The position numbers and the translations under genes are program-made. This document shows, in pieces, positions 13,584 to 50,531 of a stretch of 53,246 bases of DNA; position 1 is the first letter of the stretch, and each line of letters opens with the position of its first letter. The notes beneath the pieces were generated by a model. That model had not been told where the DNA came from. It ran no database searches and saw only the letters and a list, made by a program, of their open reading frames with translations. Location: assembly GCA_045613315.1 (NCBI GenBank), contig JAZLAV010000021.1, forward strand, positions 1-53,246, read 5' to 3'. This DNA comes from Candidatus Enterousia sp. (lineage in GTDB: Bacteria; Pseudomonadota; Alphaproteobacteria; Rs-D84).

Positions 13584-13608
13584 AAATCGCCCGATTGGGC
13601 GATTTTTA
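13581..13608. terminator. Bidirectional terminator between the ACP-like gene and clpB
   Basis: TAAAAATCGCCC-GATT-GGGCGATTTTTA between convergent genes. Confidence 0.85.
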
Positions 13609-15663
13609 TTTTACCGTCAAATCTTTGCCGTGGGTATCGACGACAACGGTGCCCCCTTCAACAACCGCCCCGGACAAAATAAGATCTGCAATTTTATCTT
13701 CGACCGCCGACATAATAAGCCGTTTTAGTGGTCGTGCACCAAACACAGAATCATACCCGTTGTCCGCCAACCATTTAATTGCCTTGTCCGTGATGTCCAA
13801 TGTGATGCGCCGTTCCATCAGACGTTTTTCTAAATTACGAATTTGTATTTTGACAATACCCGTCATCACATCACGCCCCAGTGCGTTAAAGAACACTATT
13901 TCATCCACACGATTTATGAATTCGGGCCGGAAATTTTTCCGCACCGCATCCATATCGGGCAAATTACTGGTCATTATAATAATTGTGTTTGTGAAATTCA
14001 CAACATGCCCCTGGCCATCGGTCAACCGCCCATCGTCCAGTATTTGCAAAAACACATTGAACACATCGGGATGCGCCTTTTCAATTTCATCAAACAACAA
14101 CACCTGATACGGGCGGCGACGAACACTTTCCGTTAAGACACCACCGGCATCATATCCAACATACCCCGGGGGGGCACCGATTAAACGAGCAACCGAATGC
14201 GATTCCATAAATTCACTCATATCAATCCGGGTCATGGCAGTATCGTCGTTAAACAGATATTCTGCCAAGGCTTTCGCCACCTCGGTTTTACCGACGCCAG
14301 TTGGCCCCAGGAACATAAACGACCCCATTGGCCGATGCGGATCGGAAAGCCCCGCACGCGACCGCCGAATCGCACGTGCAACAATGGACAATGCATTATC
14401 TTGGCCCACGACACGTTTACGCAATTCATCTTCTATGTTTAACAGTTTTGATTGTTCCTCGACACTTAATCTGTCCGCCGGCACCCCGGTCCATTTACTG
14501 ACCACGTTGGCAATATGTTCCGGCAAAACGGTTTTGTATTCTTTGGATTCTGCGTTCATTTTTTTTATTTTTTCTTCCAATTCTGGAATTTTGCCATATT
14601 GAACCGCAGACGCCTTTTCATAATCACCCGCCCGCATAGCGGATGCAACTTCAGCTTTTGCTGCATCCAATGCCGCCATTGCGTCCGACAAACCGTGCAT
14701 TTTTTCCTGTTCGGCGCGCCATGCGGCCGTCATTTTTTCAGATTCCGCGGCGGCATCCGCAATAAGTTTTTCCAAATCCACCAACCGTTTTTTTGATTCT
14801 TCGTCTTTTTCTTTTTTAAGTGCCTGTTTTTCGATTTTCAATTGTGCCAATCGACGATCGACCTCGTCCAGGGCGTCTGGTTTTGATGAAACCTCGATAC
14901 GGACACGGGCGGCGGCTTCATCAATCAAATCGATTGCCTTGTCCGGCAGGTACCTGTCTGTAATATATCGATTCGATAATTTTACCGCCGAAACCAGCGC
15001 ACTGTCCGAAATACGCACACCATGGTGACCTTCGTATTTTTCTTTCAGCCCGCGCAAAATAGAAATTGTGTCTTCGACCGTTGGTTCTTCGATATACACC
15101 GGTTGGAATCGACGCGCCAACGCGGGGTCTTTTTCAATATACTGGCGATATTCGTCCAACGTGGTTGCGCCCATACAATGCAATTCGCCACGTGCCAACA
15201 TTGGTTTCAACAGGTTCCCCGCATCCATGGCCCCTTCGCCACGGCCCGCCCCGACCAAGTTATGTAATTCATCGATAAACAAAATTATTTGTCCGTTGGC
15301 ATCTTTAACGGCCCGCAATATGGCTTTCAATCGCGCTTCGAATTGTCCCCGAAACATCGCGCCCGCCATCATCGCCCCTAAATCCAACGACAACAGTTTT
15401 TTATTAACCAGGTTTTCCGGCACATCACGCGAAATTATTCGTTCCGCCAAACCTTCTATGATGGCCGTTTTACCAACACCGGGATTACCAATTAAAACCG
15501 GATTATTTTTGGTTCGGCGTGACAACACCTGGATTGTACGACGGATTTCTTCGTCGCGTCCAATAACCGGGTCCAATTTGCCGTCCGCCGCCAATTTGGT
15601 AAAATCAGTGGTGTATTTTTCAATCGCCTGTGCCGGCGTTTCGTTCATTTCTTCTGGATTCAT
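13606..15663 (-). CDS. clpB: ATP-dependent disaggregase ClpB lacking the N-terminal domain
   Basis: [21 protein letters not shown], coiled-coil M domain, [28 protein letters not shown]. Confidence 0.93.
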
Positions 15664-18674: not shown

Positions 18675-19562
18675 CTATTTCACAATATGAACATCCAACT
18701 GCGGGAACGGGAAATGTATTTTCTTTTTGGGTAATGTTTCATAAATCTTTTCGTTTATTTCCGCAGATGTTGCGAACATATCGGAATAAGACGCCCAAAA
18801 ACGCACACTTAATACAACCGCACTGTCTGATAAACTTGACACAATGACAACCGGCGCCGGTGTTTTAAGAACCCTTTTGTCTTTGGACAAAATATCCAAT
18901 ATGACACGTCGCGCGACATCAACACTGTCGCCGTATGAAACACCAACTGTCAAATCGACACGGCGATTTTTCCCATGCGACAGGTTCGTTATAATTCCAT
19001 TTGCCAACGCGCCATTTGGCAAAAACAATACCTGGTTATCAAACGTATGCAATTCCGTTGTGAACATCATAATTTTTTTTACAACGCCGGTTTTACCACT
19101 GGCGGTTTCGATTGTGTCGCCAACCCGAAACGGTTTAAGCATTAAAATAATTATTCCGCCAGCAAAGTTTTGTAATGTTCCCTGAAGTGCCAAACCAACC
19201 GCCAACGATGCCGCCCCCAACACCGCAACAATCGATGTCATTTGAACGCCAACCGTCGTTAACACTATGATAAAAACAAAAATCTTGAAAACGATGTTAA
19301 TGAACGATCCCAAAAAAGATTGTAACGATGGATCAAAATCACGGGCCTGCATCACGTGCTTAATCGAACGCGTTATTTTGTTGGCCAACCACACACCACA
19401 AACCAAAATTAAAACAGCAACCAATAATTTCACGCCAAAATTAACAACCGTTTGTATTAACGATTCCAGTGCAGCATCTATGCTGGACACTTCTATATTC
19501 AATATTTCGGCCGGCTTTTGCAAAATTTCGGTCGTAGTTTCTATAATTTCATCGGGATTCAT
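18675..19562 (-). CDS. mscS: Small-conductance mechanosensitive channel
   Basis: SIVAVLGAASLAVGLALQGTLQNFAGG, PFRVGD, RRVDLTVGVSY, IHFPFPQLDV. Confidence 0.95.
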   Translation of the reverse strand: MNPDEIIETTTEILQKPAEILNIEVSSIDAALESLIQTVVNFGVKLLVAVLILVCGVWLANKITRSIKHVMQARDFDPSLQSFLGSFINIVFKIFVFIIVLTTVGVQMTSIVAVLGAASLAVGLALQGTLQNFAGGIIILMLKPFRVGDTIETASGKTGVVKKIMMFTTELHTFDNQVLFLPNGALANGIITNLSHGKNRRVDLTVGVSYGDSVDVARRVILDILSKDKRVLKTPAPVVIVSSLSDSAVVLSVRFWASYSDMFATSAEINEKIYETLPKKKIHFPFPQLDVHIVK

Positions 19563-19573
19563 TTTTTCACACC

Positions 19574-22090
19574 CTACATTGCGATATCTTCACACTTTTC
19601 AACCGGCTCTGATGTCTTGCAACTGGTTTTCTGGCTGCCACCAATACCAAAAAATCCGTTGCTCTTTTTCGTTTCACACGATTGAGTGACTGTATTGGTA
19701 CAGAAATGGCAATTTCTTGTTTCGCGATTAAAGAGCGACCATGCCTCGCGCGTGACACCATTCGCACTGAACGTATGTTTTTTGGAACCAAAATTAAGCG
19801 AGCCCAAATCCATACCACTGCTGCTGAAATCGCTGGTTTGTTTGGCGCCCTCGACAATGGACGATCCGCCCTTGACCAGGTCGGCATTTGTCATCCCTGC
19901 GCCCACATCATACGATATTGCATATGGTGGTGCCAACGGTGTATCTATATCACTGGATGCACCATAAAATTCGCCACCGGTTGCGGCAATTTTTTGACAC
20001 ATATATTGTGCCAAATCCGTTGACGCGTTTTGGGTTGCATCGGCCACGGCCTTGGTAAACTTGGCATTATAATTGTCTTGCGCCTGGCGCAGGGCGGCAA
20101 CCGCAATCTGCATCTTTACCTGGGTCAACAGGTTCGGGAAACGCGCCGTTGTACTTTCTTTTTTGCCGGTAATTTGCGACAAATCGCGCCCATTTACACA
20201 ATATTGAATTTGTGGATCTTGTTCAATCATTTCAATTGTACGGTTTATCGTACCTGCAATATTATTCAGTTCTTCTTCGATTGTTGAAATAATTGCGTCT
20301 TTGTTATTAACCCCCGCATTCCGTTTACGAATCTGGGCCAAATATTCCTGGACCCCTATTTCACCCGGTTCCAGTTTTTTGGTGGTTTCATCGCCGACAT
20401 CTGTTGTTTTCCCGGATGCGTCGCCCATCTTGATACTGCCGAATGAAATCATACCCGTCACACGATATATCGTGCCATCTTTTTGGGAACGCAACGAACC
20501 CGTGCCCATCGTTTCATCGGCCGCAAATTTATTACAATCTGTGGTACTGCCACAAACCTCTAACATTTTAGATTCGACCAAGTTCTGGCACTGTTCCAAC
20601 GCAGCATTATCTATGTTCAAATACAACCCCATCAACAAAGAATCCAAATCGTCCATTGAAAAGTTGGGATTATTTGCCTTGCATACGACCAATTTATCCA
20701 ACGGACAAATATCATGAATATAATCGTAATCCATACCGATACAATTTACAAAATCGGTGCCACAACGTGTTTCGTCGGTAAAGCAATCTTTGACCTCGGC
20801 CGTACAGGCATCAACACGCATTGCCGCCAATTTATCGGTCACATAGCCCCAAATCAGTGGTTCCATACGTTCACACGGATCTATTTCGACCTTGCAAAAA
20901 CTGCGTGCCATATCGGGCCGGCTAAGACACGCATCCATTGTTGCAACCCCACGACCGGCAATATCATCACGACATGCAGTTTGGATACAATTAGAAATAT
21001 TGGTCAAACATGATTGACGGAATTTTGATTCTGCATTTGATTCCGCCAATTTTATTGTCGGGGCAGCTTCGCGCAAAAATGCCGGCCAAACCATATCGCG
21101 AACCGCAACGCATTTGTCCAACACATTTTCACAAATGGTGCGTTTTGCACTTAACATTTCCATTGTTGATGCGGTTATATCATACACATCGATTGTTTGC
21201 ACCTTGGTCTTGGCGGTACTGGCGGCCTGGTTGTTTTGCATATTTTCCGACGCAATCGTTGAAACACAATTTATCCAGCCATCGCCACACGCATCTTCGG
21301 TCTGCATACATTTGCGAAATTCGACCATGCATTGGCCCAAATCGTATTTATTGGCTTCTGCGAAACTTTCTTTTAACGCGGCACGCACATCCGCGTTTGC
21401 ATCGGCCAGTTCTGCGGTTGCTTTGGCCTTGCTTTGCGCGATGATGTTTTCGAACGCCTTGCAATCAGATGTGATTTGACGCGCATATAATTGGTGTAAA
21501 AAGGCTAAATCCTTGTCACAAGACGCGGGCATTTGTTCGTGGCATAACTCTTCGGCGGCACGAAACAATGCGCCACCGGTTTTATCGCCAATATTATCCA
21601 TCGAATCCCCAAACACATCATCATCGAAATCGAACGACGCATTATCCCACAACGATAACAAACTGGCACGTTTTTGTTCTTTGACTTCTTTGTCCGAATA
21701 AACGACATTACCGTTTTCATCATACTTACGGGTGCCATTAAAGATAATATCTGCCTGGGCACCGGCCTGGATCCGTTCAACTTCTACTGTGCGAATGCGT
21801 TCCGCTTCGGCCAATGTATCACGGATTTCAGCCAATTGTGATTCCAGATTTGCATTTAAATCACTGCACGCACAACTGCCCCCGTTGCTGTTATCTATGA
21901 TACAAAATTGATCCATACAACCATAATATGCGTCATAACAGGCCTGGTCATAAACACCGGTGGCTGCGACACGTGCACGCACCGTTGTCCCAGATTGTAT
22001 CGCAGATTGCTTTTTGACCGTCGTCGCATTCGCCCCGACAACAACTGATATAGCAAATACAAACAATGATAAATATTTTTTTGATATCAT
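19574..22090 (-). CDS. Large secreted Cys-rich protein (uncharacterised family, member A)
   Basis: Signal peptide MISKKYLSLFVFAISVVVGANA; CYDAYYGCMDQFC...CACS followed by a coiled-coil-like stretch; many C-x6-C modules. Confidence 0.85.
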   Translation of the reverse strand: MISKKYLSLFVFAISVVVGANATTVKKQSAIQSGTTVRARVAATGVYDQACYDAYYGCMDQFCIIDNSNGGSCACSDLNANLESQLAEIRDTLAEAERIRTVEVERIQAGAQADIIFNGTRKYDENGNVVYSDKEVKEQKRASLLSLWDNASFDFDDDVFGDSMDNIGDKTGGALFRAAEELCHEQMPASCDKDLAFLHQLYARQITSDCKAFENIIAQSKAKATAELADANADVRAALKESFAEANKYDLGQCMVEFRKCMQTEDACGDGWINCVSTIASENMQNNQAASTAKTKVQTIDVYDITASTMEMLSAKRTICENVLDKCVAVRDMVWPAFLREAAPTIKLAESNAESKFRQSCLTNISNCIQTACRDDIAGRGVATMDACLSRPDMARSFCKVEIDPCERMEPLIWGYVTDKLAAMRVDACTAEVKDCFTDETRCGTDFVNCIGMDYDYIHDICPLDKLVVCKANNPNFSMDDLDSLLMGLYLNIDNAALEQCQNLVESKMLEVCGSTTDCNKFAADETMGTGSLRSQKDGTIYRVTGMISFGSIKMGDASGKTTDVGDETTKKLEPGEIGVQEYLAQIRKRNAGVNNKDAIISTIEEELNNIAGTINRTIEMIEQDPQIQYCVNGRDLSQITGKKESTTARFPNLLTQVKMQIAVAALRQAQDNYNAKFTKAVADATQNASTDLAQYMCQKIAATGGEFYGASSDIDTPLAPPYAISYDVGAGMTNADLVKGGSSIVEGAKQTSDFSSSGMDLGSLNFGSKKHTFSANGVTREAWSLFNRETRNCHFCTNTVTQSCETKKSNGFFGIGGSQKTSCKTSEPVEKCEDIAM

Positions 22091-22118
22091 ATGTTCTCTC
22101 CACACACGCAGGGAAACC

Positions 22119-24314
22119 TTACATATTCACGTCTTCACAGGATTCGATTTCCTGGCAAAATTCCTCTTTGCCACCCGATGCCAATCCCATAAGCCCCCCA
22201 CCAACCAAACCAACAACACCACCAATGGCGGTCCCCCACCCCGGTGTCACCATTGTTCCAGCCGACGCACCGGCCGCAGACAACCCCGCGCCCGACTTCA
22301 ACGCAGATGTCCATTTACTTTCACCGCCGGTTTCACAAACCTGCTGCATACGACAAACGTGACAATTCCGCAAATCCGGTTCAAAACTTACAGAACGAAT
22401 ATAACTGTAATTTTTGTCGTCCTTGTTTGGTTTTTCAACCGCATACGTGTTATAGCAGTTTTGACGTGCACGTTCCGTATCTTGTTGACGCGACAATTCT
22501 GCGATGCGTGATTCCAGTGCACGCAATGCCCGATTTTCAGCACTTATATTCGCAATCAATTTGGCTGTATTAAACACACTTGTCCCCAGGTTCGCACGCC
22601 CCGCCGGTTTTTGGCTGTCGCGACACGCCGCAACCGTCACATCATTTTCAAATTGGGCAAAGAAATCGTCCACCGCAGCCGCGGCATTCGCCCGAACCCG
22701 CGACCGCAACTCGGCCAATTCGCTATCTTTTTCCGGCACACTTACCAACGAAGCAACCGTGTCATCACCCGGCAAACACGACATGTCTGTACCACACGCA
22801 CGCCCCAATTGGTCCCCAAAATAATTCAGACATCCCTGCATCAAACTGTAATCCATCTGCATCAGTGTCGCCTGCAATATAATGTTAAATTGCGTTTCGT
22901 TTTTGCACGATGGGAACATAGACTGTGGACAAAGTGCCGCTATATCAGTCGCCTTTTTGCCCAGACATTCGGGCCCAGTAAAGTTTTGACCACATTTGTC
23001 CTGCAAACATTTGTCAACATCGTTTTGGCAAAACTGGGTACGCAAATACCCCAATTTATCGTTAACCGCGGAACGAATACCCGGCACCAATTCTTCACAT
23101 TCCGTAATAACCGTACAAATACCAGCGGCAACATCAACATTTGTTAAACACGCCGAATTTGTTGCGGTTGAACAATTATCTTCTAAACACGCCTGAATAC
23201 GCGCCAAACACGTTTGACGTGCATATTTATCGGCATACTTGGCGGCATCAACCAGAATGCTTTGAGATTCAGATTCCCAATCCGCCAACACATACGAACG
23301 CGATGCCATACACTGATCCAAAACATTTTCGCACGCATTTGCACGACGTCCCAACAAATCCGCATCCAAACAGTTTTCAAAATTCACACCACAACCACCC
23401 TTGTCGGCAACACATGACCGATACGCCAACAAACATTCGCCACGATTATACTTGTTCGTGGTATCCAGCATTTCCAAACGCGCTTTGCGTACAGCAGCTT
23501 CGGCTGTACGTTTGTTCGCCTGGGCATTTAATTTCTGATCAGCCAAATACGATTCAAACGATTTACAATCGGCAACGATTTGACGCGAATAAAGAACCGT
23601 TTCCATTTCCGAACGTGTACCACACGACTTTAATGTATCGGCACAATAATTTGCCGCCATAGAATACAGTCCCGAACCAATATCTGTATCGCCCCCCAAT
23701 GTTTCATCATCAGTCGTGACCCCACTGTTCAGCCATTCGGAAAAACTTAACCCCGATACACGTGACGATTTTTTTGCCGCATCGGACTGACCAAACACCA
23801 ACGATGCCTTGGCGCCTAATTGTTCACGTTCAACTCCCTCGGTATACAAATTATCGGCATCGGCTTGAATCTTTTGTATTTCTTGGATTAAATCTTTGGA
23901 CTTGTTTATATTATCGGAACACGCGCATCGATAACCCTCACTCTCGTCCAACAGGCAAAATTCATCCATACACGCACGATACGCATCACGACACGAACTG
24001 TCCCCAGACGGCGCGGTATCATTACCGCCACTATTATTCCCGCCACCATTATTTCCGTTATTGTCATTGTTTCCAGTGCCACCGTTATTGCCACCATTTC
24101 CCGATTCGGTTTTGCTGCCGGTGTCTGTATTAACTGCCACATGATTCCCGCCACCGGTTGCGCCATTCTGCAAATCAACCGACAAATTTGGCATACTGCG
24201 CATTCCCGCCATCGACACGCGATTAACACCAATTCGGGCATTTTCATCGCGCGTGGCCGCACCCGCGACACACGGCACCAGGCATAACACCAATGCAATA
24301 CTGTGTATTTTCAT
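22119..24314 (-). CDS. Large secreted Cys-rich protein with C-terminal glycine zipper (member B)
   Basis: Signal peptide; Gly/Asn linker; CRDAYRACMDEFC...CACS; paralogous to 19574..22090; AGGAAG RBS. Confidence 0.85.
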   Translation of the reverse strand: MKIHSIALVLCLVPCVAGAATRDENARIGVNRVSMAGMRSMPNLSVDLQNGATGGGNHVAVNTDTGSKTESGNGGNNGGTGNNDNNGNNGGGNNSGGNDTAPSGDSSCRDAYRACMDEFCLLDESEGYRCACSDNINKSKDLIQEIQKIQADADNLYTEGVEREQLGAKASLVFGQSDAAKKSSRVSGLSFSEWLNSGVTTDDETLGGDTDIGSGLYSMAANYCADTLKSCGTRSEMETVLYSRQIVADCKSFESYLADQKLNAQANKRTAEAAVRKARLEMLDTTNKYNRGECLLAYRSCVADKGGCGVNFENCLDADLLGRRANACENVLDQCMASRSYVLADWESESQSILVDAAKYADKYARQTCLARIQACLEDNCSTATNSACLTNVDVAAGICTVITECEELVPGIRSAVNDKLGYLRTQFCQNDVDKCLQDKCGQNFTGPECLGKKATDIAALCPQSMFPSCKNETQFNIILQATLMQMDYSLMQGCLNYFGDQLGRACGTDMSCLPGDDTVASLVSVPEKDSELAELRSRVRANAAAAVDDFFAQFENDVTVAACRDSQKPAGRANLGTSVFNTAKLIANISAENRALRALESRIAELSRQQDTERARQNCYNTYAVEKPNKDDKNYSYIRSVSFEPDLRNCHVCRMQQVCETGGESKWTSALKSGAGLSAAGASAGTMVTPGWGTAIGGVVGLVGGGLMGLASGGKEEFCQEIESCEDVNM

Positions 24315-24388
24315 AGAATCCTTCCTACAATTATCTTGATATATTTTATCAAATAAAGCCCCCAGGCGCAAGTTATATTAAAAACAAC

Positions 24389-24417: not shown

Positions 24418-24456
24418 AATAATCATCAAAAAAGCATGAAAATACAAGGGATACAT

Positions 24457-24705
24457 ATGGCAAAAGACGACGTTATTGTTTTCAGCGGTGTGGTCGAAGA
24501 TAAATTACCGAACACAATGTTCCGCGTAAAACTGGAAAATGGTCACGAAATATTGGCGACCGTGTGCGGCAAAATGCGCAAGGCACGCATTTGGGTTAAC
24601 ATTGGCGAACACGTTCGTGTTGAAATGACACCATACGATTTGGACAAGGGGCGCATAACATTTGTTGAACGAAACCGCGCAACACCCGACCAAACAAATC
24701 AGTAA
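24457..24705 (+). CDS. infA: Translation initiation factor IF-1
   Basis: MAKDDVI...[14 protein letters not shown]...GKMRK...[14 protein letters not shown]. Confidence 0.96.
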
Positions 24706-24801: not shown

Positions 24802-27240
24802 ATGAGAAAGGTTTTACCGTTTATTTTTGCGTGTTGCGTTGGCATCGGTGTCACTGACGCCGCGGTTCGTGACGCATCAACCATTTCGCGCACGGGCGCA
24901 ACACAAACAACCGTTTCACGCCCGGGCACCACAACTCAACGGGTCGTGTCGCGCGCATCAACGGCACCCGTTTCCGCATCCAGAAATCTACACTCCACAC
25001 AAACCGCACGCACCGCCACGACACGCACAACCACCCCGACTGTATCACGGGCCACGGTGACGCGTTCTGCAACACCGACAACAAATCTTCGTAACACTAT
25101 GACCAAATCACGCACAAATAATGGCACCACAACACGTGCACGCGTCGCGACACACATCGATACAACAAATTCAAAAACATTTGGCACCGGGTATAACACA
25201 TGCCGCGATGCATACTTTACCTGTATGGACCAATTTTGTGCGACAACGGACGACACGTATCGTCGTTGCGTATGCTCGTCACGGCTTTATGAAATCAAAA
25301 AGAAACAAAACGCATTGGGACAATCTGCGGACCAATTACAGGATTTCAAGGATTTGAACCTGGCCGTGATACCCAAAACCGCAGCCGAGGTTAAAGCCAT
25401 GCAAACCGCCAGCGAAGGCGAATTATTGGCATCCATAATCAAGGACAAATCGTCATCTGCCACAAAATTGGCCGGTATAAGTGCGGTATTATCGAACACG
25501 AAATCAAAATCTTTGTCCACGGCGGGCCAACTTGATATTGCCGGTGACATTAACGCGATTTGGGCGACGACGGATTTAACATCCGGATTAAACATTTCCA
25601 ATTTAACGGGCGAAACATTATACAACGCGGTTCACAGCCAATGCGCCAACCTGGTGACGGATCGTTGTTCGTCAAAATCACTGTTAAATATGGTCGTGTC
25701 CGCATACAGTATGTACATCGAAAACGACTGTTCATTACTGGCCAATTCTTTGGATAAAAAGAAAAACGCCGCGGATGCATCTATTCGTGAAACAGAACGC
25801 GAAATGAATTTGGCACGATTGGACAATTACGATGCCCACAATTCTTCGTCCATCAACGAATGTATCTCTATGGTCCGAAACGACATTACCGCAGATACCG
25901 CATGTGGCACCGACTATGTACACTGTCTGGACACAACGGGATTATACCTGAACAAAACAACCGGCGAACCGATATACACATCTAACTTCTATCTGTTGGG
26001 CAGCACATTATCATTGTCCGGCGACATATTGACGAATCAAACAAATCGTTTGCTGGTTTCTGAATTAAACCGCAAACGTATATTCGCAGAAAAAAGTCTG
26101 GATACGTGCCGCGATTTGGCCGACGATGTTTGGGACGAATTCATGCGCCAGGCCATTATTGAAATATACCAAGGCCAACAAACACGCATCCGTAATGTAA
26201 AAAATGAATGCCTGGACGTTGTTAACCAATGTTATAACATGCAAAGCGAATCTTTAAAGGATTTTAGCAACATCACCGATCAACTGTTGATTGGTGCACG
26301 ATTGGAATTATCCGAAGAAATGTGTCGTGAAAAATTAAATGCGTGCAGTAATCTTTACGGTGGCGGCACAAACGGAATGCAGGAATTATTGATCACCATG
26401 TATGACATTACTTCACAAAAAATTGCGCAAAACTGTTTTGCGACATTACGTGAATACGCACAACAGTTGTGTGCCGTTCCATCCACCGATTCACTGCATT
26501 CATATCCATATGCATGTCGCGCATATGCACCCGGCGAACAGCGGTATGCATCCAAATGGTTCTGCAACCAAGAAACCAAAACCGCCAATGCCACAAATAA
26601 TTCGGACGAAGAAACCAGGGCCGATGCCACCACAACTACTGGCACAAAACCCTATACCTGTCCCAACAGTAAAAAATATATATCTTGTAACAGTGGCTAC
26701 TATATGGCAAACGCAGATGGTAATTTTATAAGCACACCCGAATTAGGCAACCAATGTTTACCATGTTCTCCGACCAATGGGTGTCCAACATCATCAACAA
26801 CTGAAGATACCACAACAATGCCATCATTTGAATTTCCGTGTGGTACCGACTATGCCGGCAGTTTGTATCAAAAACTGATTCGCTATGCCGTCCAGGCCTG
26901 TATGCGCCCAAGCGAAATGGAAAAACTTACGACAGAATCTTCGTTGCCGGACACATTATTACAAGACGTCAATGCAACAATGGATTTAATCAAGGCATCA
27001 ATGGCAGCATCATTAAAATCGGAATGTGAACGATTGGGCGGATATTGGGTTGCGGCACAATGGAATAATTCTATCACCATCGACACAGGAATAAAATTAT
27101 TTGGACGATTCTATAATGAAACCGGCGCAAACAAAAAATGGGGATATTGTGCCGACCCCGACACGATTACCACATACTACACCGGCACGGAAACATCATC
27201 TGGTTCCGGCGACACCACCGAAAATCAAACGACGAATTAA
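24802..27240 (+). CDS. Large secreted Cys-rich protein (member C) with Thr/Arg-rich N-terminal region
   Basis: Signal peptide; T/R low-complexity region; CRDAYFTCMDQFC...RCVCS; CGTDYVHC; furin-like CNSGYY...CLPC segment. Confidence 0.85.
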   Translation: MRKVLPFIFACCVGIGVTDAAVRDASTISRTGATQTTVSRPGTTTQRVVSRASTAPVSASRNLHSTQTARTATTRTTTPTVSRATVTRSATPTTNLRNTMTKSRTNNGTTTRARVATHIDTTNSKTFGTGYNTCRDAYFTCMDQFCATTDDTYRRCVCSSRLYEIKKKQNALGQSADQLQDFKDLNLAVIPKTAAEVKAMQTASEGELLASIIKDKSSSATKLAGISAVLSNTKSKSLSTAGQLDIAGDINAIWATTDLTSGLNISNLTGETLYNAVHSQCANLVTDRCSSKSLLNMVVSAYSMYIENDCSLLANSLDKKKNAADASIRETEREMNLARLDNYDAHNSSSINECISMVRNDITADTACGTDYVHCLDTTGLYLNKTTGEPIYTSNFYLLGSTLSLSGDILTNQTNRLLVSELNRKRIFAEKSLDTCRDLADDVWDEFMRQAIIEIYQGQQTRIRNVKNECLDVVNQCYNMQSESLKDFSNITDQLLIGARLELSEEMCREKLNACSNLYGGGTNGMQELLITMYDITSQKIAQNCFATLREYAQQLCAVPSTDSLHSYPYACRAYAPGEQRYASKWFCNQETKTANATNNSDEETRADATTTTGTKPYTCPNSKKYISCNSGYYMANADGNFISTPELGNQCLPCSPTNGCPTSSTTEDTTTMPSFEFPCGTDYAGSLYQKLIRYAVQACMRPSEMEKLTTESSLPDTLLQDVNATMDLIKASMAASLKSECERLGGYWVAAQWNNSITIDTGIKLFGRFYNETGANKKWGYCADPDTITTYYTGTETSSGSGDTTENQTTN

Positions 27241-27305: not shown

Positions 27306-27968
27306 ATGAAAAAACTATTTTTGTTATCTTTGTTTTTCGCCGTGTCGGACGCGATATCGGCAATACCGTGGTGGGAACAACCAACGGTTTGTCGACTAAA
27401 CCCGGCCAGTTGTTATACAACCATGGGTGCGGGATACGAACGCGAAATGTGGGACGCAGGTTCCAATTGTTGGGGTGTAAAAGTAATTTGTGGTGACGCA
27501 TTAACAAACACAAACAATGCCACACCCGTTGGCAAAACAACCATTTCGCGTGGCACGAATATAAGTTCGGATTATGATTTAACCGTTTTAAATGGTGATT
27601 GCTTTGGTGTTCGCAAAACCTCAACCGATGGCACAATGGCATCTGTAAATGGCACAATGGTTCGTGTGTGGTGTAATGGCATTTTATCAAACGTTGATGA
27701 AACAATTGAAACCGGTGAAATCACGTATGGCGCCCAACCGACGTGTTCGACATTGGCGCCCGATGGATATGTTGCTGTCCAAAATGGAAAATGTTATGGG
27801 AAATATTATGACACGGACCGTTATTTTATTCAGTGCGATAACGAAACACCAACACTGATTGTGTTGAACGGCGCAAATTATGAAACGGGAACCACATCGT
27901 ATCCCCAGACCCAGGCCGATGCCGACGCAATATTCAATCGTATGTATGAAAACGTACATCAAAATTAA
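27306..27968 (+). CDS. Secreted Cys-containing hypothetical protein
   Basis: Signal peptide MKKLFLLSLFFAVSDAISA; several Cys; 220 aa. Confidence 0.8.
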   Translation: MKKLFLLSLFFAVSDAISAIPWWEQPTVCRLNPASCYTTMGAGYEREMWDAGSNCWGVKVICGDALTNTNNATPVGKTTISRGTNISSDYDLTVLNGDCFGVRKTSTDGTMASVNGTMVRVWCNGILSNVDETIETGEITYGAQPTCSTLAPDGYVAVQNGKCYGKYYDTDRYFIQCDNETPTLIVLNGANYETGTTSYPQTQADADAIFNRMYENVHQN

Positions 27969-35527: not shown

Positions 35528-38500
35528 TTAGAACAATTTGAATTTATAGTTTGTACCGGCACGGAACGATACATCCGCGTTGGATATACCGGCACCTGCA
35601 TTGACGGACCATCTGTCGGACAATCCCATCGCTGCCCCAAATGCCGCGGCCGATTGACCGTTAAAGTAGCCATATCCGGCACCAACCGACACTTCGCCAC
35701 GTTCAACCCCGGATACCGCAACCGATGACAATGCAACTGCACCCGCGACACCGGCTGACAAATCCTTGTCCAGTGATTCGATGCGTCGATCGGTGTATGC
35801 ATTTGCATCCGCCAATGTTGCAACACGCGCCAAACTTAACTGAGTATCAGTATATGTGTTCGCCTCCGCGACCGCATTCGCTGCCGCCTGGGCCACAGAA
35901 CCATCGCCGGTGCCATTTAATGTCGCAATTGCAGCCGTATTGCCATCAACCACGCCACCCAACTGGTTCAACGCTGAACCGACCGTTGCGGCCGAACCCA
36001 ACGATGTTACGTTACCGTTGTTGGTAAACGTTGCATTTTCTGCATTGGTCTTTACGGTATTCTTGACAGAACCGGTCGTGCCTTCGCCCGCCGCCAATGT
36101 CACAAAAGCGGCATCATGGTTATCCAAACGATTCTGGGTTCCCTTGACCCCGGCATCCAAATTGCTTAACGCGTCGGCAATTGTGGTTGTTGTCGAACCG
36201 ATAACATCTTTTGATGTCAACGCGTTCTGCAATTGGTTGTTGACATTTTCATCAACATCAACCCCCAACAGGCTTTCCGCCCAATCGTGTGCCTGGTTAT
36301 AAACCGCCGTCACACCATCTGTCACCTCTGCCTTGGTTGCATATGTCGTCTTGATGTTATTACCATCTTCGTCGCCATATGCCTTGGCAACAATTGTTGT
36401 GCCATTTACGATTTTCGCGATATCGCCCGTATTCGTATTAACCTGGGCATTGGTGTCATTTAATGCGCCACTCAACGTACCCGCAGACGAACCGGTCACC
36501 TTGGTGCCTGTATAATCTGCGTTCTCGGCACTCTTTAACACCGTCGCCGTCGTTGCCAATGTTGTTGCCGAACCGGTTGTTTGTGCGGCCGCGCCATTGT
36601 CAATCGCATTTGCGGTCGCATCACCTGCAAACTTTAGCGAACCACCGATTGTCGCATCGCCGGTTGTCGACAGTGTTGTTGTTGCAACACCACCGTTTGC
36701 GTTTAATGCGCCCGTCAATGTAGTATCACCGACCACCTCTAAAGCACCCGCGATTGTTGCCGCACTTGCGGTCAGGCCACTTGATGTCAATGTGTTATTC
36801 GCATCAACCGAGAACCCGTTTGCCGCGGTTACAGACGCCAACGTTGCGACACCGTTTTCATTAATGCTGTAATCAGAGCCGAATTTTACACCCTTTTCTG
36901 CAACAATTTGTTCTTCAAACGTGTTTGTTCCAGTAAATGTGTTGTTCGACGCAGTGCCCGCTGCGGTTGTCGCAACCGTATTGATTGCACTCACCAGATT
37001 CACATCGTCGCCAATCTTTTGCCCACTCAACAGACCCGCCGTTGCCGCGGTTGTTTGTGCCGTGCCAACTTCGGTTTGCAGGCCACCAATATTGCTTTCG
37101 GCTGTTGCCAACGCATTTGCAACACTAACAACATTTCCGGCCAAATCAGTACCCGCAGTCAGGTGATTTGTGGTTGTTGCCTCGGACGATTCAACCGTGA
37201 TATTGCCAGTCAAACCACTTATGCCGATATTGATTGTTGAAATATCAGACGCATTCTTGGCAATTGCCGCAGTCAATGTTGAACCAACACTGCTGATATC
37301 GGTCGTGCCGATTTTGGTGTTGATTGTTGCGATATTGGTTGCGTTTGTTGCAATCTGGCCGACCTTGGTCGCATCGATACCCGATGCCAACGCCGCCGAT
37401 TGTGCATCAGACCAATCGATATACGCTGTATTCAACTTGTTTGTTCCGGACAAAGCATCCTGTTTGGCCGTCCATGCAGTTATCTGGTCATCTGTAACAA
37501 CACGATGTGTTGCATCAAACGTCAAATCGCTTGCCTTACCACTGGTTGCAACCGTGGCCAAATCTGCGGTATTTGCCTTTGCCGCCAACGCCGTATTCAT
37601 ATTGGTCGTTGTTGTATAGTTTGTCAAATCGGCAACATCTTTGGTAATGAACCCAGATGTGCTGTTATCAAACTGTGACAAATCTATTGTTGCCAACTTG
37701 GCCAATGTGACGGAGCTATCTGTCAGGTTTGCACCATTCAACGCGCTTGTTGATTGCAATGCACTGTCGGCCAACGCCAACGAAGCATTAACGGTTGAAT
37801 CCAATTGTGTCGCACCGATTGAACCGGCCTTGACATTCAAACCACTTGTGCCTGATTCAATTGTTGTGCCATCTGTTTTGACATACAGTTCACCCGAACC
37901 ATTGAAATCCAGCGCAGTGCCAGTGGACTTGACAGAAATCGTATCAGACGTAATACCAATACCATCACCCGCGGTTAACGTACCCTGCTTTGTCGCCAAC
38001 GCAGTGTTCATTGCACTGGTTGTCGCATAGTCCGCCAATGTTGTGGTCAACGCCGAACGGTTAATCAACTTGTCGCTGAATGTGATTGTGCCATCGTCAT
38101 TATCAACCACACTGGTATAGTAATTCATACCATTGATTTGCACATTTTCGTCCAGTTTACCACCAACGATCAACGTCACATTATCCGCAGTACCATATTC
38201 AGTTCCCAGGATATTGATTTCGGTAATGTTCGCATTGGCACCGGCCGTAAAACTATCGGCTGAATTTGTCGTCCCCAATTTCGCATCCAGGACAACATTA
38301 CCGCCACCGAATGTACCGGCAATTGTGTCAATTGCACCGTTGTGCAAATCCAACGTACCGCCGGTCAGTGTACCGGTAAAGTCCGCACCCGACGCGACCT
38401 TGATTGTGTTCGTATTTGCGGTGTTGTTAAAGATTGTTTGTCCCGCGACCAGGTTTGTTGTCCCGGTTCCGGTGATTGTTGCGCCCGACGCAAATGTGAC

Positions 38501-41389
38501 CTGGTCAGAACCATCGTTGGACAGGTTCGCAACATTATAGTTTTCCAACACACCGGTTGACGCGAACGTATCGCCCGAAATATTCGCGACACCCGTATTG
38601 GTCAGTGTTTCGGAATATGTCGTTGGGTCGGAATAAAGGATACCGGCATTACGGACATTAACCCCAAGCAACGAATCGTTAATATACAGAACACCCGTTG
38701 CGGCATTGTTCAATGTACCGGTTCCAGACAACTTCAAATCGTTGATTTCAACCGTTGCACCGTCGGCAACCGTCAAATCCGCCGCCGCCAGTTCCAGCCC
38801 ATTGTCGGTCGATTCCGTGCCGGCACCATTAAGAACAAATGTATGTTGCAACGATTTAGCTGTATTCAACGATTCGTCGGTGGTCAATTGATAATTGATT
38901 TCATTAACCGTTGCCGATGCATCGGCCGCAGTTGCGATGCCACCGTCGAAACCCTGGACCTTTATCATTCCATCGGCCGCCCCAGACGACGCGAAAGTTG
39001 CACCGTTTTCGGATGTCCAGACGGCTTGACTGATATCAACCGTTGCGCCATCGGATACAACCTGAATAGTCTTGGCCCCCTTGCCAACATTGCTGATTAA
39101 ATTACCAACCTTGTAATTAACAGTTGCACCAGATGTCGCCGCGTATTTATCCGCAGACGAATTTATAAAGTCAATATCACCCTTAATCCCGGCACCACTG
39201 GCCAACGTGATTGTTGACGAATAGTCATTAATTAAATCGTCAATCGTGTTGATTGTTGCACCCGATGCAACATTAACCGTTGACCCAGTCAAATCAGCAT
39301 TATTCAAATGCAATTCACCACCATTCAACGCAACGGTTTGATTTTTCAAACTGTTTGCGATTTCAATGGTGCCGACCCCAGCAACATTTAACAAACCGGT
39401 CGTTGTGCCGTTTGTTGTTCCGTCAATACCGCCCGTTAAAGAAATTTTCTTTCCGCTTGCCGTATTAAGATTTACAACACCTGTGTTATATATATCATTT
39501 GCTTCATAACTATCTGCACTTACATATTTGTTTTTATTGCCTTCAAATGTAATGTCGGCTGTCGTTGCATTAAGATTTAAAATACCGCCTTTCCAACTAT
39601 CGTTATATATAGCACCTGCCCAACCACCTACATTATTTTTAAACAATGCCCCAGAACCAATTGTTATATTGCCCGTATTATATATTGCAGAACCAATATT
39701 GCCTTCAAATGTAGCATTTTCACCGATTGTTACATTGTTATCGGCATTATTAATATGAATAGCACCACCATCATCTACTCCACCATACACACCTAACCGG
39801 TTAGTATTATTTCTAAATATCGCGTCGTCGCCAATTGTAAGAGTGGTTTTGCCATTTGACCTATCAGTAATATTAATACCGCCACTGGCACCTTCGTTCC
39901 AACCCGTACCGTGTGCATAGTTTAAATTACTTTCTACTAACAAATTATCACCAATTGTCACATTGTTGTTTCCAAAGAAATACATTGCCCCACCGTTGTA
40001 GGCTTGGTTGTTAGTAAACTCTACATTATTTCCTATTGCCACTGTTCTTTGGGCAGAAGATGTCCCTTCAGAATATATACCACCACCCATTTCACTTGGA
40101 AAGCTTTGTTCATCTACATAGAACGATGTATTACCATCAAACTTTACATTATTTCCGATTGTAAGATTACCAGTATTGGCTATTGCCCCCCCGGCAGTTG
40201 GAGCCGAATTATTTGAGAAAGTTGTACCATCAGATACGGTTAAGGTGCCCCTGTTATCAATTGCGCCACCATAGACAGAAGAGTTGCCATCAAAATCACC
40301 CCCAACCGTCAATGTTCCTGCGTTGTATATGGCCCCACCCGAACTTGTTGCTGTGCCATCGGTAAATCTCGCATTTGCATCCGAATTGATTGTTAATGCT
40401 GCACCGGAATTCACAACTGTACGACCAGTGGATGTCAAAGAATTACTGACCGTCATTTCACCACCAGACACCGTCAGACCATTTGCACCAACGGTCAGAT
40501 TTTCAATCTCTATACCATTAACATCTTGAACAATGACGCTACCACTGTCAACATTTAAATTATTCAACGCAGTATACATACTGCCATTTGTTGCCAATTC
40601 GCCTTTAGTGCGATCAACAGTTGTCGCCGTCCATTTTGCACCGTTTTTAAGGTTTATTGTCGCATTGTCCACTGCCAACTTGGCAACCTCTGGCTTTTCA
40701 TCATCCCAACTGACCAATGTGTTACCTGTCCACGAAGACTGAGCGCCAACCAAATTAATATTAACGTCGGCATTCACACCCGTTCCAGAAGTCGCCTTAT
40801 TATAATTGAAATTTATATCGCCATTAAGAACGGTTTTATTCGCATCCGTATCTTTGTTGATATAAACCTTGGCATCACCACGAGTTAAAATTGCGTCCTT
40901 GCCAGTAATTGTTGTATTACCAACAATATTTAAACGGCCCTCTGAAAAAACGGTAACACCAATCGAATTCGGCGCAGAAATATTAACATCGGTCGCGGTT
41001 AAATTCACTGTAGAAAAAGTGTCCGCCCCATCCGCAGGCGTCGTATTGTTTTGAATCCATACACCTGCATCACCACCGGTGGATGTCGATGTTATATTAA
41101 TTGTATCAGCGGTGATATCAGCAAACTTTGATTGGGCATTCACACCAGTGCCAGTTGAAATCGCACGCAAACCATCACCAGTTGAAGTAATCGTTACGGT
41201 ATCCCCAGCCTGACCTATATTCAACCCCTCTGTCGTAGCAAACTGTATACCGCTAAGTTCGATATCCACCGCCATTGCGGGTGCAGTCGCAATCAGGCCC
41301 AACGCAATTGCGTTGCACAAAATGCCGTGGCGCAGAACTGCGCGATACATGGCGGTTAATTCTTTTAATGTGGTTCTGGTTTGTTTCAT
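35528..41389 (-). CDS. Giant trimeric autotransporter adhesin (YadA-type anchor) with Pmp-like GGAI/FxxN repeats
   Basis: GGAGG RBS; extended signal peptide; GGAIYN/GGAIDN/GGAIAN repeats; C-terminal ANAYTD neck, AGVAGAVAL, GYGYFNGQSAAAFG, terminal F. Confidence 0.9.
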   Translation of the reverse strand: MKQTRTTLKELTAMYRAVLRHGILCNAIALGLIATAPAMAVDIELSGIQFATTEGLNIGQAGDTVTITSTGDGLRAISTGTGVNAQSKFADITADTINITSTSTGGDAGVWIQNNTTPADGADTFSTVNLTATDVNISAPNSIGVTVFSEGRLNIVGNTTITGKDAILTRGDAKVYINKDTDANKTVLNGDINFNYNKATSGTGVNADVNINLVGAQSSWTGNTLVSWDDEKPEVAKLAVDNATINLKNGAKWTATTVDRTKGELATNGSMYTALNNLNVDSGSVIVQDVNGIEIENLTVGANGLTVSGGEMTVSNSLTSTGRTVVNSGAALTINSDANARFTDGTATSSGGAIYNAGTLTVGGDFDGNSSVYGGAIDNRGTLTVSDGTTFSNNSAPTAGGAIANTGNLTIGNNVKFDGNTSFYVDEQSFPSEMGGGIYSEGTSSAQRTVAIGNNVEFTNNQAYNGGAMYFFGNNNVTIGDNLLVESNLNYAHGTGWNEGASGGINITDRSNGKTTLTIGDDAIFRNNTNRLGVYGGVDDGGAIHINNADNNVTIGENATFEGNIGSAIYNTGNITIGSGALFKNNVGGWAGAIYNDSWKGGILNLNATTADITFEGNKNKYVSADSYEANDIYNTGVVNLNTASGKKISLTGGIDGTTNGTTTGLLNVAGVGTIEIANSLKNQTVALNGGELHLNNADLTGSTVNVASGATINTIDDLINDYSSTITLASGAGIKGDIDFINSSADKYAATSGATVNYKVGNLISNVGKGAKTIQVVSDGATVDISQAVWTSENGATFASSGAADGMIKVQGFDGGIATAADASATVNEINYQLTTDESLNTAKSLQHTFVLNGAGTESTDNGLELAAADLTVADGATVEINDLKLSGTGTLNNAATGVLYINDSLLGVNVRNAGILYSDPTTYSETLTNTGVANISGDTFASTGVLENYNVANLSNDGSDQVTFASGATITGTGTTNLVAGQTIFNNTANTNTIKVASGADFTGTLTGGTLDLHNGAIDTIAGTFGGGNVVLDAKLGTTNSADSFTAGANANITEINILGTEYGTADNVTLIVGGKLDENVQINGMNYYTSVVDNDDGTITFSDKLINRSALTTTLADYATTSAMNTALATKQGTLTAGDGIGITSDTISVKSTGTALDFNGSGELYVKTDGTTIESGTSGLNVKAGSIGATQLDSTVNASLALADSALQSTSALNGANLTDSSVTLAKLATIDLSQFDNSTSGFITKDVADLTNYTTTTNMNTALAAKANTADLATVATSGKASDLTFDATHRVVTDDQITAWTAKQDALSGTNKLNTAYIDWSDAQSAALASGIDATKVGQIATNATNIATINTKIGTTDISSVGSTLTAAIAKNASDISTINIGISGLTGNITVESSEATTTNHLTAGTDLAGNVVSVANALATAESNIGGLQTEVGTAQTTAATAGLLSGQKIGDDVNLVSAINTVATTAAGTASNNTFTGTNTFEEQIVAEKGVKFGSDYSINENGVATLASVTAANGFSVDANNTLTSSGLTASAATIAGALEVVGDTTLTGALNANGGVATTTLSTTGDATIGGSLKFAGDATANAIDNGAAAQTTGSATTLATTATVLKSAENADYTGTKVTGSSAGTLSGALNDTNAQVNTNTGDIAKIVNGTTIVAKAYGDEDGNNIKTTYATKAEVTDGVTAVYNQAHDWAESLLGVDVDENVNNQLQNALTSKDVIGSTTTTIADALSNLDAGVKGTQNRLDNHDAAFVTLAAGEGTTGSVKNTVKTNAENATFTNNGNVTSLGSAATVGSALNQLGGVVDGNTAAIATLNGTGDGSVAQAAANAVAEANTYTDTQLSLARVATLADANAYTDRRIESLDKDLSAGVAGAVALSSVAVSGVERGEVSVGAGYGYFNGQSAAAFGAAMGLSDRWSVNAGAGISNADVSFRAGTNYKFKLF

Positions 41390-41473
41390 GGTGCCTCCCC
41401 CTTTTTTCTCTTTTATCCGGTATTGGTTATTGAAATGCAAAAATGGCGTAACCACAATGGTTGCCGCCATTTA

Positions 41474-48197: not shown

Positions 48198-48226
48198 AAT
48201 ATAGACAAATTGTCGTGTTTTGTCAA
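48198..48226 (-). promoter_or_regulatory. Sigma70-type promoter for the 48165 gene
   Basis: Minus strand TTGACA-17 nt-TATATT. Confidence 0.6.
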
Positions 48227-48309
48227 GTGTCTTTTCGCTTTTTTCTTTTTCGTTTGTTTTTTCTTTGCGCCCCACCCCTTTTTCTGGTATAATTAAACAC
48301 CAGAGAGAA

Positions 48310-49170
48310 ATGATTAAAAAAACCGCTTTTATAATATTATATTGTGCGCTAGTGCCGGCAATTGGGCACGCGGCGTGTTCGCGCGCGAATTTAACACGAT
48401 GTTTGGATTCTGCGTGTGCCATTAATTTATCGTCGAATCCGGCCGCCCGGTGCCAGTATTGTGGCACCGCGGATGCGGGCGAACCGAACGACACGGGTCT
48501 GCGTGCCGTATCGGTGGGAACATCTGCGAAATTCAGCATTTCATCGCGTGAAATGCGTTCCGCCCCGACCGATCCGGGCGAACGTTATGTTTGGGCATCG
48601 AAAAAGTGCCTGGCCATGGTTAACGATTGTACCGCCGACGACATATCTGATGTGTACGACGTGTTAATTGAACAATCGTGCACTGCGGCGGGCATAAGCG
48701 CACAGATGGCCACATTATTTGAAAACGCCCGCAAGACCAAAACGGAAAGCGTATGTAAATCTGAAATAAGTGCATGTATCATTGCCGACACGCGGTGCCA
48801 ATCGCGCTATGCCGGGTGTGGTGCGGACGACGATTTCAACAAATATTTTTCAGAATGTTCGGTTGCATCGACCGGATGCGATGCATATTTGACGGGCATT
48901 CGGTCCACATTGGCCACCGCCCGCACAAACGCGATTACGAACGCAGAATCGGCGATTGTGGCGATTGCCACGGGCTATCGTGATGCCCGTGAAAAACGTT
49001 TAGCTGCGATAAACAAATCGTGTGCGGACAATTCCGGCCGTGATGCGTGCATAACATCGATTTGCAATCGCAGTATGCCCAACAAATGCGATGCGGCATA
49101 CCCAACGGAACGTTCTATGGCGGCCCAGTTGTGCAAGTTTTATGAAATTGCATGTGCAACATTAAAATAA
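48310..49170 (+). CDS. Secreted Cys-rich protein (member D)
   Basis: Signal peptide MIKKTAFIILYCALVPAIGHA; CLDSAC, CKSEISACIIADTRC modules. Confidence 0.85.
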   Translation: MIKKTAFIILYCALVPAIGHAACSRANLTRCLDSACAINLSSNPAARCQYCGTADAGEPNDTGLRAVSVGTSAKFSISSREMRSAPTDPGERYVWASKKCLAMVNDCTADDISDVYDVLIEQSCTAAGISAQMATLFENARKTKTESVCKSEISACIIADTRCQSRYAGCGADDDFNKYFSECSVASTGCDAYLTGIRSTLATARTNAITNAESAIVAIATGYRDAREKRLAAINKSCADNSGRDACITSICNRSMPNKCDAAYPTERSMAAQLCKFYEIACATLK

Positions 49171-49184: not shown

Positions 49185-50531
49185 ATGATGTGTGGAAACG
49201 GATTTTTGGCAAACAATTTTGGCAATCGCGCGTGTTTCGCGATTGTTGCGATATTGGCGACATTTGCGACCGCATCCGGCGCGAACGTTGTCCAGCGCGA
49301 CACCGTGACGAATCGGGTTTCGGCCACCCGTCCCACCGTTGCGGCGAATCGTATGCCATCGATGACTGTTAACATTGGTTCGACATCCACATCGACGACC
49401 AGCACGACGACCGACACAACGTCAACCGACACGACGACAACGACGACCACACCGACGGAATCTGACACAGGCACAGCAAACATTGAAAACAAATCGGACA
49501 TGTTTGGATCTGGTTTATCGACGCGTTCCACGACCCAGATTGACACGGCTGCGAACAATTTGGCCGAATTGGTCCGGGCCCAACGTGCCACCCTGGACGC
49601 GGCCGGTGCGACCGCGACTACAACCACAACTGCGACAAATTCGGCCGGCAACGGTGGCAACGCGTGCGATTCCGCGTTGCGTGCGTGCATGATCCTGAAA
49701 TGCGGTAACAATTTTGCCAAGTGTATTGGCGACACCGACACAACGTTTTTCGACAAAATGGACACATGCCGTCGTTCGACGAAATGCACGGGGCGCGAAT
49801 ATACATTGTTTTCGACCGAGATAAAGGCCGACCGTGATTTCAATGCAAAAATCGCTAATTATAACGCGACGATTGATTGTGGCACGAATTATGACGCGTG
49901 TATTATTGCCCAATGTGGTGTGAACTATTCGAAATGTCTGGGGAAATCTGCGGGCGACACGGCAATTACGAAATGTGAATCGATTGCGAAATCGTGCACA
50001 ACATATGATTCGGGGCTTGCGATGCGCGCAATGGCCGTCTTTGGCGATTTTCGACAGACCGCCGAACGTCAAATTGCGACCGACGAACAGAAATTATACG
50101 CCCTGCGGGAACGTATGCGCAACGTGTGCACACATTTGGGTGCGATGTTTGACGAACGATCATTGGATTGTGTTTACACGGTGAATTTCCATGCGGGCAA
50201 CGAATCGACGCTTTTCGCGTCCAAGAAATTATATGCCGGTTCCACATTTGATTGTACCCAGGATTGGTTTGGCGTTAACGTGACGACATATCGTGAAAAC
50301 GCGATGCGTGAAACCCGCGCCCAAACATCTGCATCGTCGGCAATGTTGGGTTCCGGTGCCGGCCAGGCGACGGGCGCAATCACATCGGGCGCGATTAACC
50401 GTGCCATTGACCGTTACCGCGCGGACAGTGCATTGGACGACATCGTTGCCGAATGCACCGCCGCATACGGTGCCGACGCCCCCGAATGCCGTGGTGAACA
50501 ATCCACCGCGCAACCGGAAGCGCCGAAATAA
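49185..50531 (+). CDS. Secreted Cys-rich protein (member E) with Thr-rich linker and Gly-rich C-terminal segment
   Basis: Hydrophobic N-terminus; CDSALRACMILKCGNNFAKC and CGTNYDACIIAQCGVNYSKC internal repeats; AMLGSGAGQATGAITSGAI. Confidence 0.85.
   Translation: MMCGNGFLANNFGNRACFAIVAILATFATASGANVVQRDTVTNRVSATRPTVAANRMPSMTVNIGSTSTSTTSTTTDTTSTDTTTTTTTPTESDTGTANIENKSDMFGSGLSTRSTTQIDTAANNLAELVRAQRATLDAAGATATTTTTATNSAGNGGNACDSALRACMILKCGNNFAKCIGDTDTTFFDKMDTCRRSTKCTGREYTLFSTEIKADRDFNAKIANYNATIDCGTNYDACIIAQCGVNYSKCLGKSAGDTAITKCESIAKSCTTYDSGLAMRAMAVFGDFRQTAERQIATDEQKLYALRERMRNVCTHLGAMFDERSLDCVYTVNFHAGNESTLFASKKLYAGSTFDCTQDWFGVNVTTYRENAMRETRAQTSASSAMLGSGAGQATGAITSGAINRAIDRYRADSALDDIVAECTAAYGADAPECRGEQSTAQPEAPK

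Follow-up and report, generated by a model that had tools for sequence, protein, structure and literature searches.

A strain-exchanged tip beside a constant glycine-zipper hairpin in a pair of cysteine-rich proteins of Candidatus Enterousia

A variable tip borne by an unchanging core is a familiar design, seen in TraN, PilV and polymorphic toxins. In TraN, which stabilises mating pairs for F-like plasmids, variable tip types and a beta-hairpin flanked by cysteines set the partner, according to passages of PMC9246713; in the PilV shufflon of the IncI1 and IncI2 plasmids, the C-terminus of a contact protein is swapped by inversion in cells with type IVb pili (excerpts of PMC5430464 and PMC9045228). 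CofJ and TcpF, which leave the cell as folded proteins through type IVb pili by means of a flexible N-terminal extension, bind the pilus tip, and CofJ has been proposed as a bridge between the pilus and the host membrane (PMC6048534 and PMC9565799). Glycine zippers are found in the adjacent pair CdzC/CdzD of Caulobacter, which is retained at the surface and depends on contact (parts of PMC5380434). Here we describe two neighbouring genes, A and B, which resemble each of these systems in part and for which we infer a function. They lie in a stretch of DNA of 53,246 nucleotides (nt), hereafter the window, corresponding to contig JAZLAV010000021.1 of assembly GCA_045613315.1 from Candidatus Enterousia sp., an alphaproteobacterium of the order Rs-D84.

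Members of this order, Enterousia included, live in the guts of many animals and have genomes of about 1 Mb or below, from which most biosynthetic pathways are absent; a dependence on a partner cell has been proposed for them (PMC12306168). The source genome, of 826 kb, encodes at least nine long members of one protein family, among which A and B are paralogs (29% identity over 498 residues of the core, E=1e-56), each with 36 cysteines in its mature part. An initial annotation, whose coordinates span the whole of A but only some 93 codons at the end of B, had called the two genes adjacent and co-oriented, and so they are: 28 nt separate the stop codon of B from the ATG of A, and A comes directly after B in all 79 close loci with room for it (taken from the best 80 of 215 matches), as well as in 13 of 15 more distant loci. 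The features on which the argument turns are the following (aa, amino acids).

19574-22105, minus strand: gene A, encoding 838 aa from a likely start at the ATG in 22090; a signal peptide, then a helical core and an exchangeable C-terminal tip
19577..19993, minus strand: exchangeable tip of A (residues ~705-843), here of the GFLGIG type
19622..19675, minus strand: basic-aromatic loop of A (ETKKSNGFFGIGGSQKTS), enclosed by C810 and C829 and located on the tip of a strand 17 residues long
22119-24371, minus strand: gene B, encoding 731 aa from a likely start at the ATG in 24314; a signal peptide and a linker of low complexity, then a helical core and a C-terminal beta-hairpin module
22122..22409, minus strand: C-terminal beta module of B (residues ~655-750), strands as in the AlphaFold model
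22170..22295, minus strand: glycine zipper of B (residues 693-734), a 42-aa uncharged Gly/Ala hairpin within the 59-aa tip loop

The tip types of A do not track descent, and tips are exchanged between near-identical strains. Among 75 orthologs, the cysteine-flanked loop measures 13-18 residues, with a mean net charge of +2.3, and falls into at least four unrelated types: GFLGIG in 28 sequences, SWFHN in 25, NWFRK in 14, GFLGLWDS in 4 and others in 4. When mapped onto the tree of the B core (68 labelled rows, after exclusion of two that were incomplete or odd and of two without a type), tip type requires 30 changes versus 33.1 for shuffled labels, and 46 of 500 shuffles are as low; equal-length control windows from A and from the tail of B give ratios of 0.18-0.55. 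Similarly, tip type changes only 6 times on the tree of the tips themselves versus 27 times on the tree of the A core, upon which a forced SWFHN clade is rejected (approximately unbiased test, p-AU 1e-12). The residual signal on the core tree (27 versus 33.1 changes, with 3 of 200 shuffles as low) is what close relatives would be expected to leave. The same exchange is evident from pairwise comparisons of 120 A homologs: 340 pairs have cores at least 90% identical, yet in 159 of them the tips are less than 60% identical, the extreme cases combining cores of 98% identity with tips of 38-39%. Identity mostly breaks near residue 700-710, just past a conserved QYMC, which indicates that the final ~135 residues move together as one unit, along with another variable loop that precedes the hairpin. 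Recent transfer of tips over long distances was looked for through third-codon identity and is indicated in only 2 of 3916 pairs, the sites in general being near saturation.

The corresponding part of B is constant. In all 75 close orthologs the loop is 59 residues long, 37-49 of which form an uncharged run; the zipper is kept in all 15 full-length distant representatives of B and even in an ortholog of 29% identity that belongs to another family, and across 120 homologs the identity of the tail never drops below 61% (0 of 7140 pairs under 60%). The initial annotation had taken the loops of A and B to be equivalent hydrophobic elements, but the two are not counterparts of each other. Its zipper of roughly 45 aa is indeed present in B, in the form of a 42-aa uncharged run within a longer loop, and is conserved; the loop of A, in contrast, is part of the exchanged block and is basic and aromatic instead of hydrophobic, its mean Kyte-Doolittle (KD) value being negative in 75 of 75 orthologs and 1-3 aromatic residues being present in 74 of them. 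The hydrophobicity of the B loop is itself marginal, with a best 19-residue KD value (KD19) of 1.05-1.78 among the 75 orthologs. Other cysteine-containing exported proteins with Gly/Ala-rich uncharged hairpins are encoded in the source genome (G000:C19:11242-13317 and C12:5706-8849) and in the window at 50571-53024, the last one having also a carboxypeptidase-regulatory-like domain and a weak OmpA-like domain.

The different behaviour of the two tips contrasts with the common descent of the modules that carry them. The C-termini of A and B, which the initial annotation had aligned on the basis of motifs present in both proteins, match above chance in profile-profile comparison and are thus judged homologous from their sequences (E=1.5e-6 in local mode; probability 97.5% and E=3e-11 for the C-terminal thirds in global mode). 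AlphaFold models both proteins as mostly helical with one long C-terminal beta-hairpin, at the predicted tip of which lie the loop of A and the 59-residue insertion of B, as the first reading of the sequence had anticipated (mean predicted local distance difference test score, pLDDT, of 79.7 for B and 83.2 for A). The pattern of cysteine loss agrees with the models and provides independent support for the hairpins: in 113 B sequences C673 and C745 are lost jointly 14 times and C679 and C739 jointly 4 times, 18 losses in all and never of a single partner. Disulfides may consequently be assigned in B as C673-C745, C679-C739 and, by elimination, C639-C670. A similar paired trend is seen in A, with some alignment noise in the forms with long insertions, and all its tip types share one scaffold of a hairpin laddered with cysteines. 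The count of cysteines is even in 199 of 200 A and B sequences, which points to intramolecular disulfides.

This architecture bears upon the suggestion, made in the initial annotation, that A and B form a two-protomer pore or fusogen whose loops insert side by side in a membrane. Its appeal lies in the fixed order of the genes, in the homologous modules with loops at equal positions, in the existence of a two-protein Gly-zipper contact killer in Alphaproteobacteria, CdzC/CdzD (as presented in parts of PMC5380434), and in the distant relatives of A. Full-length A-like representatives number 24, as assigned by best match without regard to neighbouring genes, and in 14 of them the last 300 aa contain a segment that is hydrophobic or uncharged over a long stretch; in about ten of these, by eye, it forms a long hydrophobic hairpin at the homologous Cys-flanked loop, often with a PVVGW-type turn, and in others it lies at the upstream loop. 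Such hairpins support the idea that the hairpin tips meet membranes, the contribution of A taking many unrelated forms. However, the loop of A is short and cationic, with its unrelated types swapping freely on a constant B, and in alleles L091, L098 and L165 it lacks any hydrophobic patch; in L165, from the same genus, a hydrophobic or uncharged hairpin is found further upstream, and the cysteines enclose nothing but a basic loop. Hence, what stands of the bipartite proposal is the membrane-type hairpin of B and the position of both loops at hairpin tips, while A as a matching segment of a pore gives way to A as a swappable tip, and we deem the two-protomer reading decidedly unlikely. A third paralog in the source genome ends in the same hairpin module (L081:5523-8285, equivalent to G000:C19:14522-17284; 920 aa, 38% identical to A); the tails of its representatives vary widely, hydrophobic or long uncharged segments being present in 12 of 81, and it may also have an exchangeable tip.

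At three loci a second tip, silent, truncated at its 5' end and inverted, is found next to the expressed one. Locus L076 presents an expressed SWFHN tip, a terminator-like palindrome and then, on the opposite strand, a silent GFLGIG tip truncated at its 5' end, both tips being flanked by an inverted repeat of coding sequence of 373 nt and 99% identity. L119 is a contig of 1849 nt with two convergent tips and a perfect inverted repeat of 141 nt at its ends, and in the same genome the A gene runs off another contig near residue 604; invertible segments usually show up in assemblies in this way. Between positions 753 and 930 of L119 lies an element of ~180 nt that recurs at five or more places in its own genome. 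In L234 a silent truncated copy of A faces the expressed tip, with a gene that reads as GIY-YIG-like in between; a 120-nt inverted repeat (952-1071 and 2596-2715) encloses this gene and the silent tip. A third genome of the genus with two matches has a duplication of the whole locus. A is also broken at contig ends, around residues 600-720, in L021, L128 and L129, and short contigs such as L119 are easily lost from binned genomes. No recombinase-like neighbour was recognised around L076 or L234, the rest of those genomes not having been searched for one, and the source genome has a single tip with no silent spare found. To judge from these sequences, an inverted second copy would likely allow the tip to flip. 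One B gene beside two different tips fits poorly with protomers that co-evolve, and the exchange of tips together with the silent spares would suit a device for recognising partners better than a simple two-part pore.

How does this pair compare with the systems mentioned at the outset? A is similar to TraN (PMC9246713) in being large and exported, in having more than 20 cysteines and in combining a conserved core with a variable tip and a Cys-flanked hairpin; yet TraN is beta-rich and plasmid-borne with an N-terminal tip, whereas A is helical and chromosomal, with a C-terminal tip and a Gly-zipper paralog for company. No Pfam match to TraN was obtained for A or B at E<=0.01, and no TraN chain is among the fold matches listed. 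The likeness to the PilV shufflon resides in a C-terminus swapped by inversion, which in A is a likely possibility; unlike in shufflons, no recombinase or short sfx-type sites were seen at the two-tip loci themselves, their repeats consist of 141-373 nt of coding sequence, there is one spare tip only, and rarely, and A is not a pilin. With CofJ and TcpF, A and B share flexible N-terminal extensions, which here have conserved motifs, and a genome containing type IVb pilus parts; the differences are that no homology is detected, that the two genes lie outside the pilus operon and that export by this route is putative in their case.

Glycine zippers bring to mind two further groups. A and B are an alphaproteobacterial Gly-zipper pair like CdzC/CdzD; judging from parts of PMC5380434, these rely on type I secretion, have an immunity protein and both contain zippers, unlike our pair with its signal peptides, many cysteines and a zipper in B only. 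A bacteriocin of Cdz type was accordingly rejected, the proteins being of 730-840 aa with signal peptides and no conserved small downstream gene being present in 75 loci. The B hairpin also resembles the GxxxG-rich two-helix hairpin, of marginal hydrophobicity, of Gly-zipper 2TM lipoproteins such as SlyB, YfgH and YiaD; however, B has ~730 aa and lacks a lipobox, its zipper is inserted in a disulfide-closed beta-hairpin, and the matches stay below curated cut-offs.

Toxins and fusogens were compared as well. Polymorphic toxins exchange their C-terminal domain and keep spares nearby, as A does in L076, L119 and L234, but the class was rejected for want of a cognate immunity gene and in view of the single hairpin scaffold common to the tips, as opposed to unrelated toxin folds. 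The bicomponent and tripartite pore-forming toxins, of leukocidin and ClyA/Nhe/YaxAB types, consist of adjacent homologous components inherited together, which is also true of A and B in the close and distant loci counted above; a conserved and probably membrane-inserting element is found in B and not in A, whose loop is cationic and of exchanged types. Class II fusogens, i.e. HAP2 and the E proteins of flaviviruses and alphaviruses, have a three-domain beta-rich fold with the fusion loop on domain II. They were rejected too, given the mostly helical models with one C-terminal hairpin and the lack of any viral fold match for A at E<=0.001, and the same helical models, like the missing immunity gene, speak against the two-protomer reading. 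Foldseek searches of the whole models against the PDB and viral structures returned nothing at E<=0.001, so that the kinship with pore-forming toxins or fusogens that the initial annotation had envisaged found no backing in sequence or fold, the tip domain having been searched as part of the whole and not alone. The best VIA-align scores (Z of 8.2 and 8.0) were to generic helical bundles and barely tested the C-terminal hairpin, and profile searches of PDB sequences gave one ribosomal match for B (E=0.76) and none for A.

The reading that we tentatively prefer, at somewhat less than even confidence, is that A and B constitute a surface contact pair, in which A provides a swappable recognition tip and B a constant hairpin that inserts into membranes. 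After Sec export, both proteins would fold oxidatively and pass to the surface, most plausibly via the type IVb pilus machine as in the case of CofJ and TcpF. The basic-aromatic or hydrophobic loops of A would then dock on the partner, with the strain-exchanged tip setting which cell surface is contacted, and the B hairpin would insert into the membrane of the partner, maintain the attachment and perhaps let metabolites through. Fresh tips would be acquired when strains recombine within the homologous, conserved core, in some cases by way of the inverted second copy. A bolder version of the same scheme, which we regard as unlikely, would make A and B the working parts of a novel machine with which an abundant, uncultured lineage of gut parasites feeds or attaches itself, the sometimes invertible tip of A selecting the host cell and the B hairpin opening the host membrane for metabolites, both on a helical fold braced by disulfides for which the searches gave no match.

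The contact pair draws support from the predicted position of the loops at hairpin tips, the constancy of the zipper, the exchange of the A tip, the two-tip loci, the membrane-type segments that recur at the tip of A, the lack of an immunity-like gene after A and the proposed partner dependence of the lineage (PMC12306168). Also in its favour, the source genome encodes type IVb pilus parts together with VirB8, VirB9 and VirB10. The pilus set is chromosomal and plasmid-like, with a TcpQ-like protein, a secretin, a PilO-like protein, an ATPase and a platform protein (pilus and Vir genes at L178:6025-8624, L179:6217-10885 and L180:9207-13869 of the same genome), and of 13 genomes that represent the order, 12-13 have the secretin, the ATPase and VirB10. 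This widespread presence of both machines would also suit a role of A and B as subunits that assist type IV secretion or the type IVb pilus from the periplasm, with hairpins anchored in the cell's own inner membrane or in the machine and the proteins reaching the surface only in part; some distant A-like hairpins, with KD19 of 2.0-2.8, are hydrophobic enough to serve as inner-membrane anchors. Yet the zipper of B, with the values given above, falls short of the hydrophobicity that a stop-transfer anchor needs, the loci viewed show no linkage to vir or pil genes, and the B profile matches 0 of 4 genomes of one family of the order (f2) and 4 of 19 of another (f3), while the sampled genomes of both families keep the two machines. 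The exchange of tips, moreover, is left unexplained by a purely periplasmic role, and we hold this alternative to be very unlikely. A motif R-[MV]-P-[STA]-[MI] past the signal peptide is found in 4 of 595 open reading frames, all encoding cysteine-rich exported proteins (window 49185-50531; G000:C3:5460-8567; C19:11242-13317; C18:60059-62428), and a similar one in the consensus of B; it is a candidate sorting signal.

Several considerations weigh against the idea of a contact pair. Surface exposure, the route of export, binding between A and B, the identity of the host and membrane activity are all conjectural, and a simple motif scan did not find the N-terminus of a classical type IV prepilin. 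Two-tip loci are rare in the assemblies that reveal them (2 of 257 genomes of the genus and 1 of 74 metagenome loci); B stands without an adjacent A in 2 of the 15 more distant loci; most of the B loop is modelled with pLDDT below 50, and the arrangement of domains is uncertain because the predicted template modelling score (pTM) is 0.49-0.51. Phage or immune pressure would likewise produce an exchange of tips, and a few of 35 B orthologs give weak, below-cut-off matches to the Gly-zipper 2TM lipoproteins of a cell's own outer membrane.

The last two points are shared by a possible though doubtful alternative, in which the B zipper fixes a structure braced by disulfides to the outer membrane of the producing bacterium and the exposed tip of A varies to escape phages or host defences. 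That at least nine paralogs are conserved in so small a genome, and that B matches in every genome of the family, suggest a core structural role of this sort, and phage pressure predicts the exchange just as well. Inspection, on the other hand, reveals no lipobox in either A or B, and neither the even cysteine counts nor the paired losses offer anything pointing to intermolecular cross-links. Furthermore, basic-aromatic or hydrophobic features of membrane type persist in very different tips of A, and pure evasion needs none of them.

The family itself has a restricted distribution. Relatives of B come almost entirely from Candidatus Enterousia or uncultured Alphaproteobacteria; within the same family all 121 genomes have a match to the B profile, as have 10 of 29 from other families of the order, and the A profile has no match in 298 alphaproteobacterial genomes outside the order. 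No NCBIfam family was found for A or B and no Pfam family for A, B or C, the paralog introduced below (E<=0.01 for A and B); Pfam returned nothing meaningful for 26 distant A-like proteins, and in the ESM Atlas B led only to unnamed clusters below 0.9 and the tip of A to no usable match. No account of the family appears in the titles and the beginnings of abstracts of open-access literature on Enterousia and Rs-D84, nor do PMC12306168 and a passage of PMC11257099 describe it. Within the libraries searched, the family and its architecture have no match, and the exchange of the A tip shows that the family is not conserved uniformly.

The surroundings of the pair include the following genes.

18675..19562, minus strand: mscS, context, 11 nt past the stop codon of A
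24436..24705, plus strand: infA, context, between B and C
24802..27240, plus strand: gene C, a paralog that shares only the N-terminal core, divergent from B

Wherever the locus leaves room for it (73 of 73), gene C lies upstream of B, and behind it, in most loci viewed, there is a small cysteine-containing exported gene (window 27306-27968) whose product has no family in Pfam or NCBIfam. We rejected mscS as a partner, for it is the next gene after A in only 26 of 75 loci; in 55 of the 75 the gene after A is a homolog of housekeeping type from the same genome, and downstream of A in these loci there is no recurring small gene and no immunity-like gene. Promoter-like sites occur at chance level, and a scan for terminators found one after mscS and none convincing between B and A. 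In a genome of another family (L090:4862-12001), two A-like genes come after B, and next to them stands a weak homolog of window 48220-49170, a layout that suggests a larger ancestral operon. Elsewhere in the window, positions 35528-41470 encode a protein of 1980 aa with a C-terminal YadA-like anchor, another candidate adhesin, and 13606-15663 a ClpB-like protein of 685 aa that starts nearly at the first AAA domain, its N-terminal domain seemingly missing.

For organisms proposed to depend on a partner cell, a core gene with a strain-exchanged tip, next to a constant hairpin of membrane type, offers a handle on the question of who that partner is. The natural tip domains may serve as probes for the host cell, and the type of tip could be correlated with the organisms that co-occur in metagenomes.

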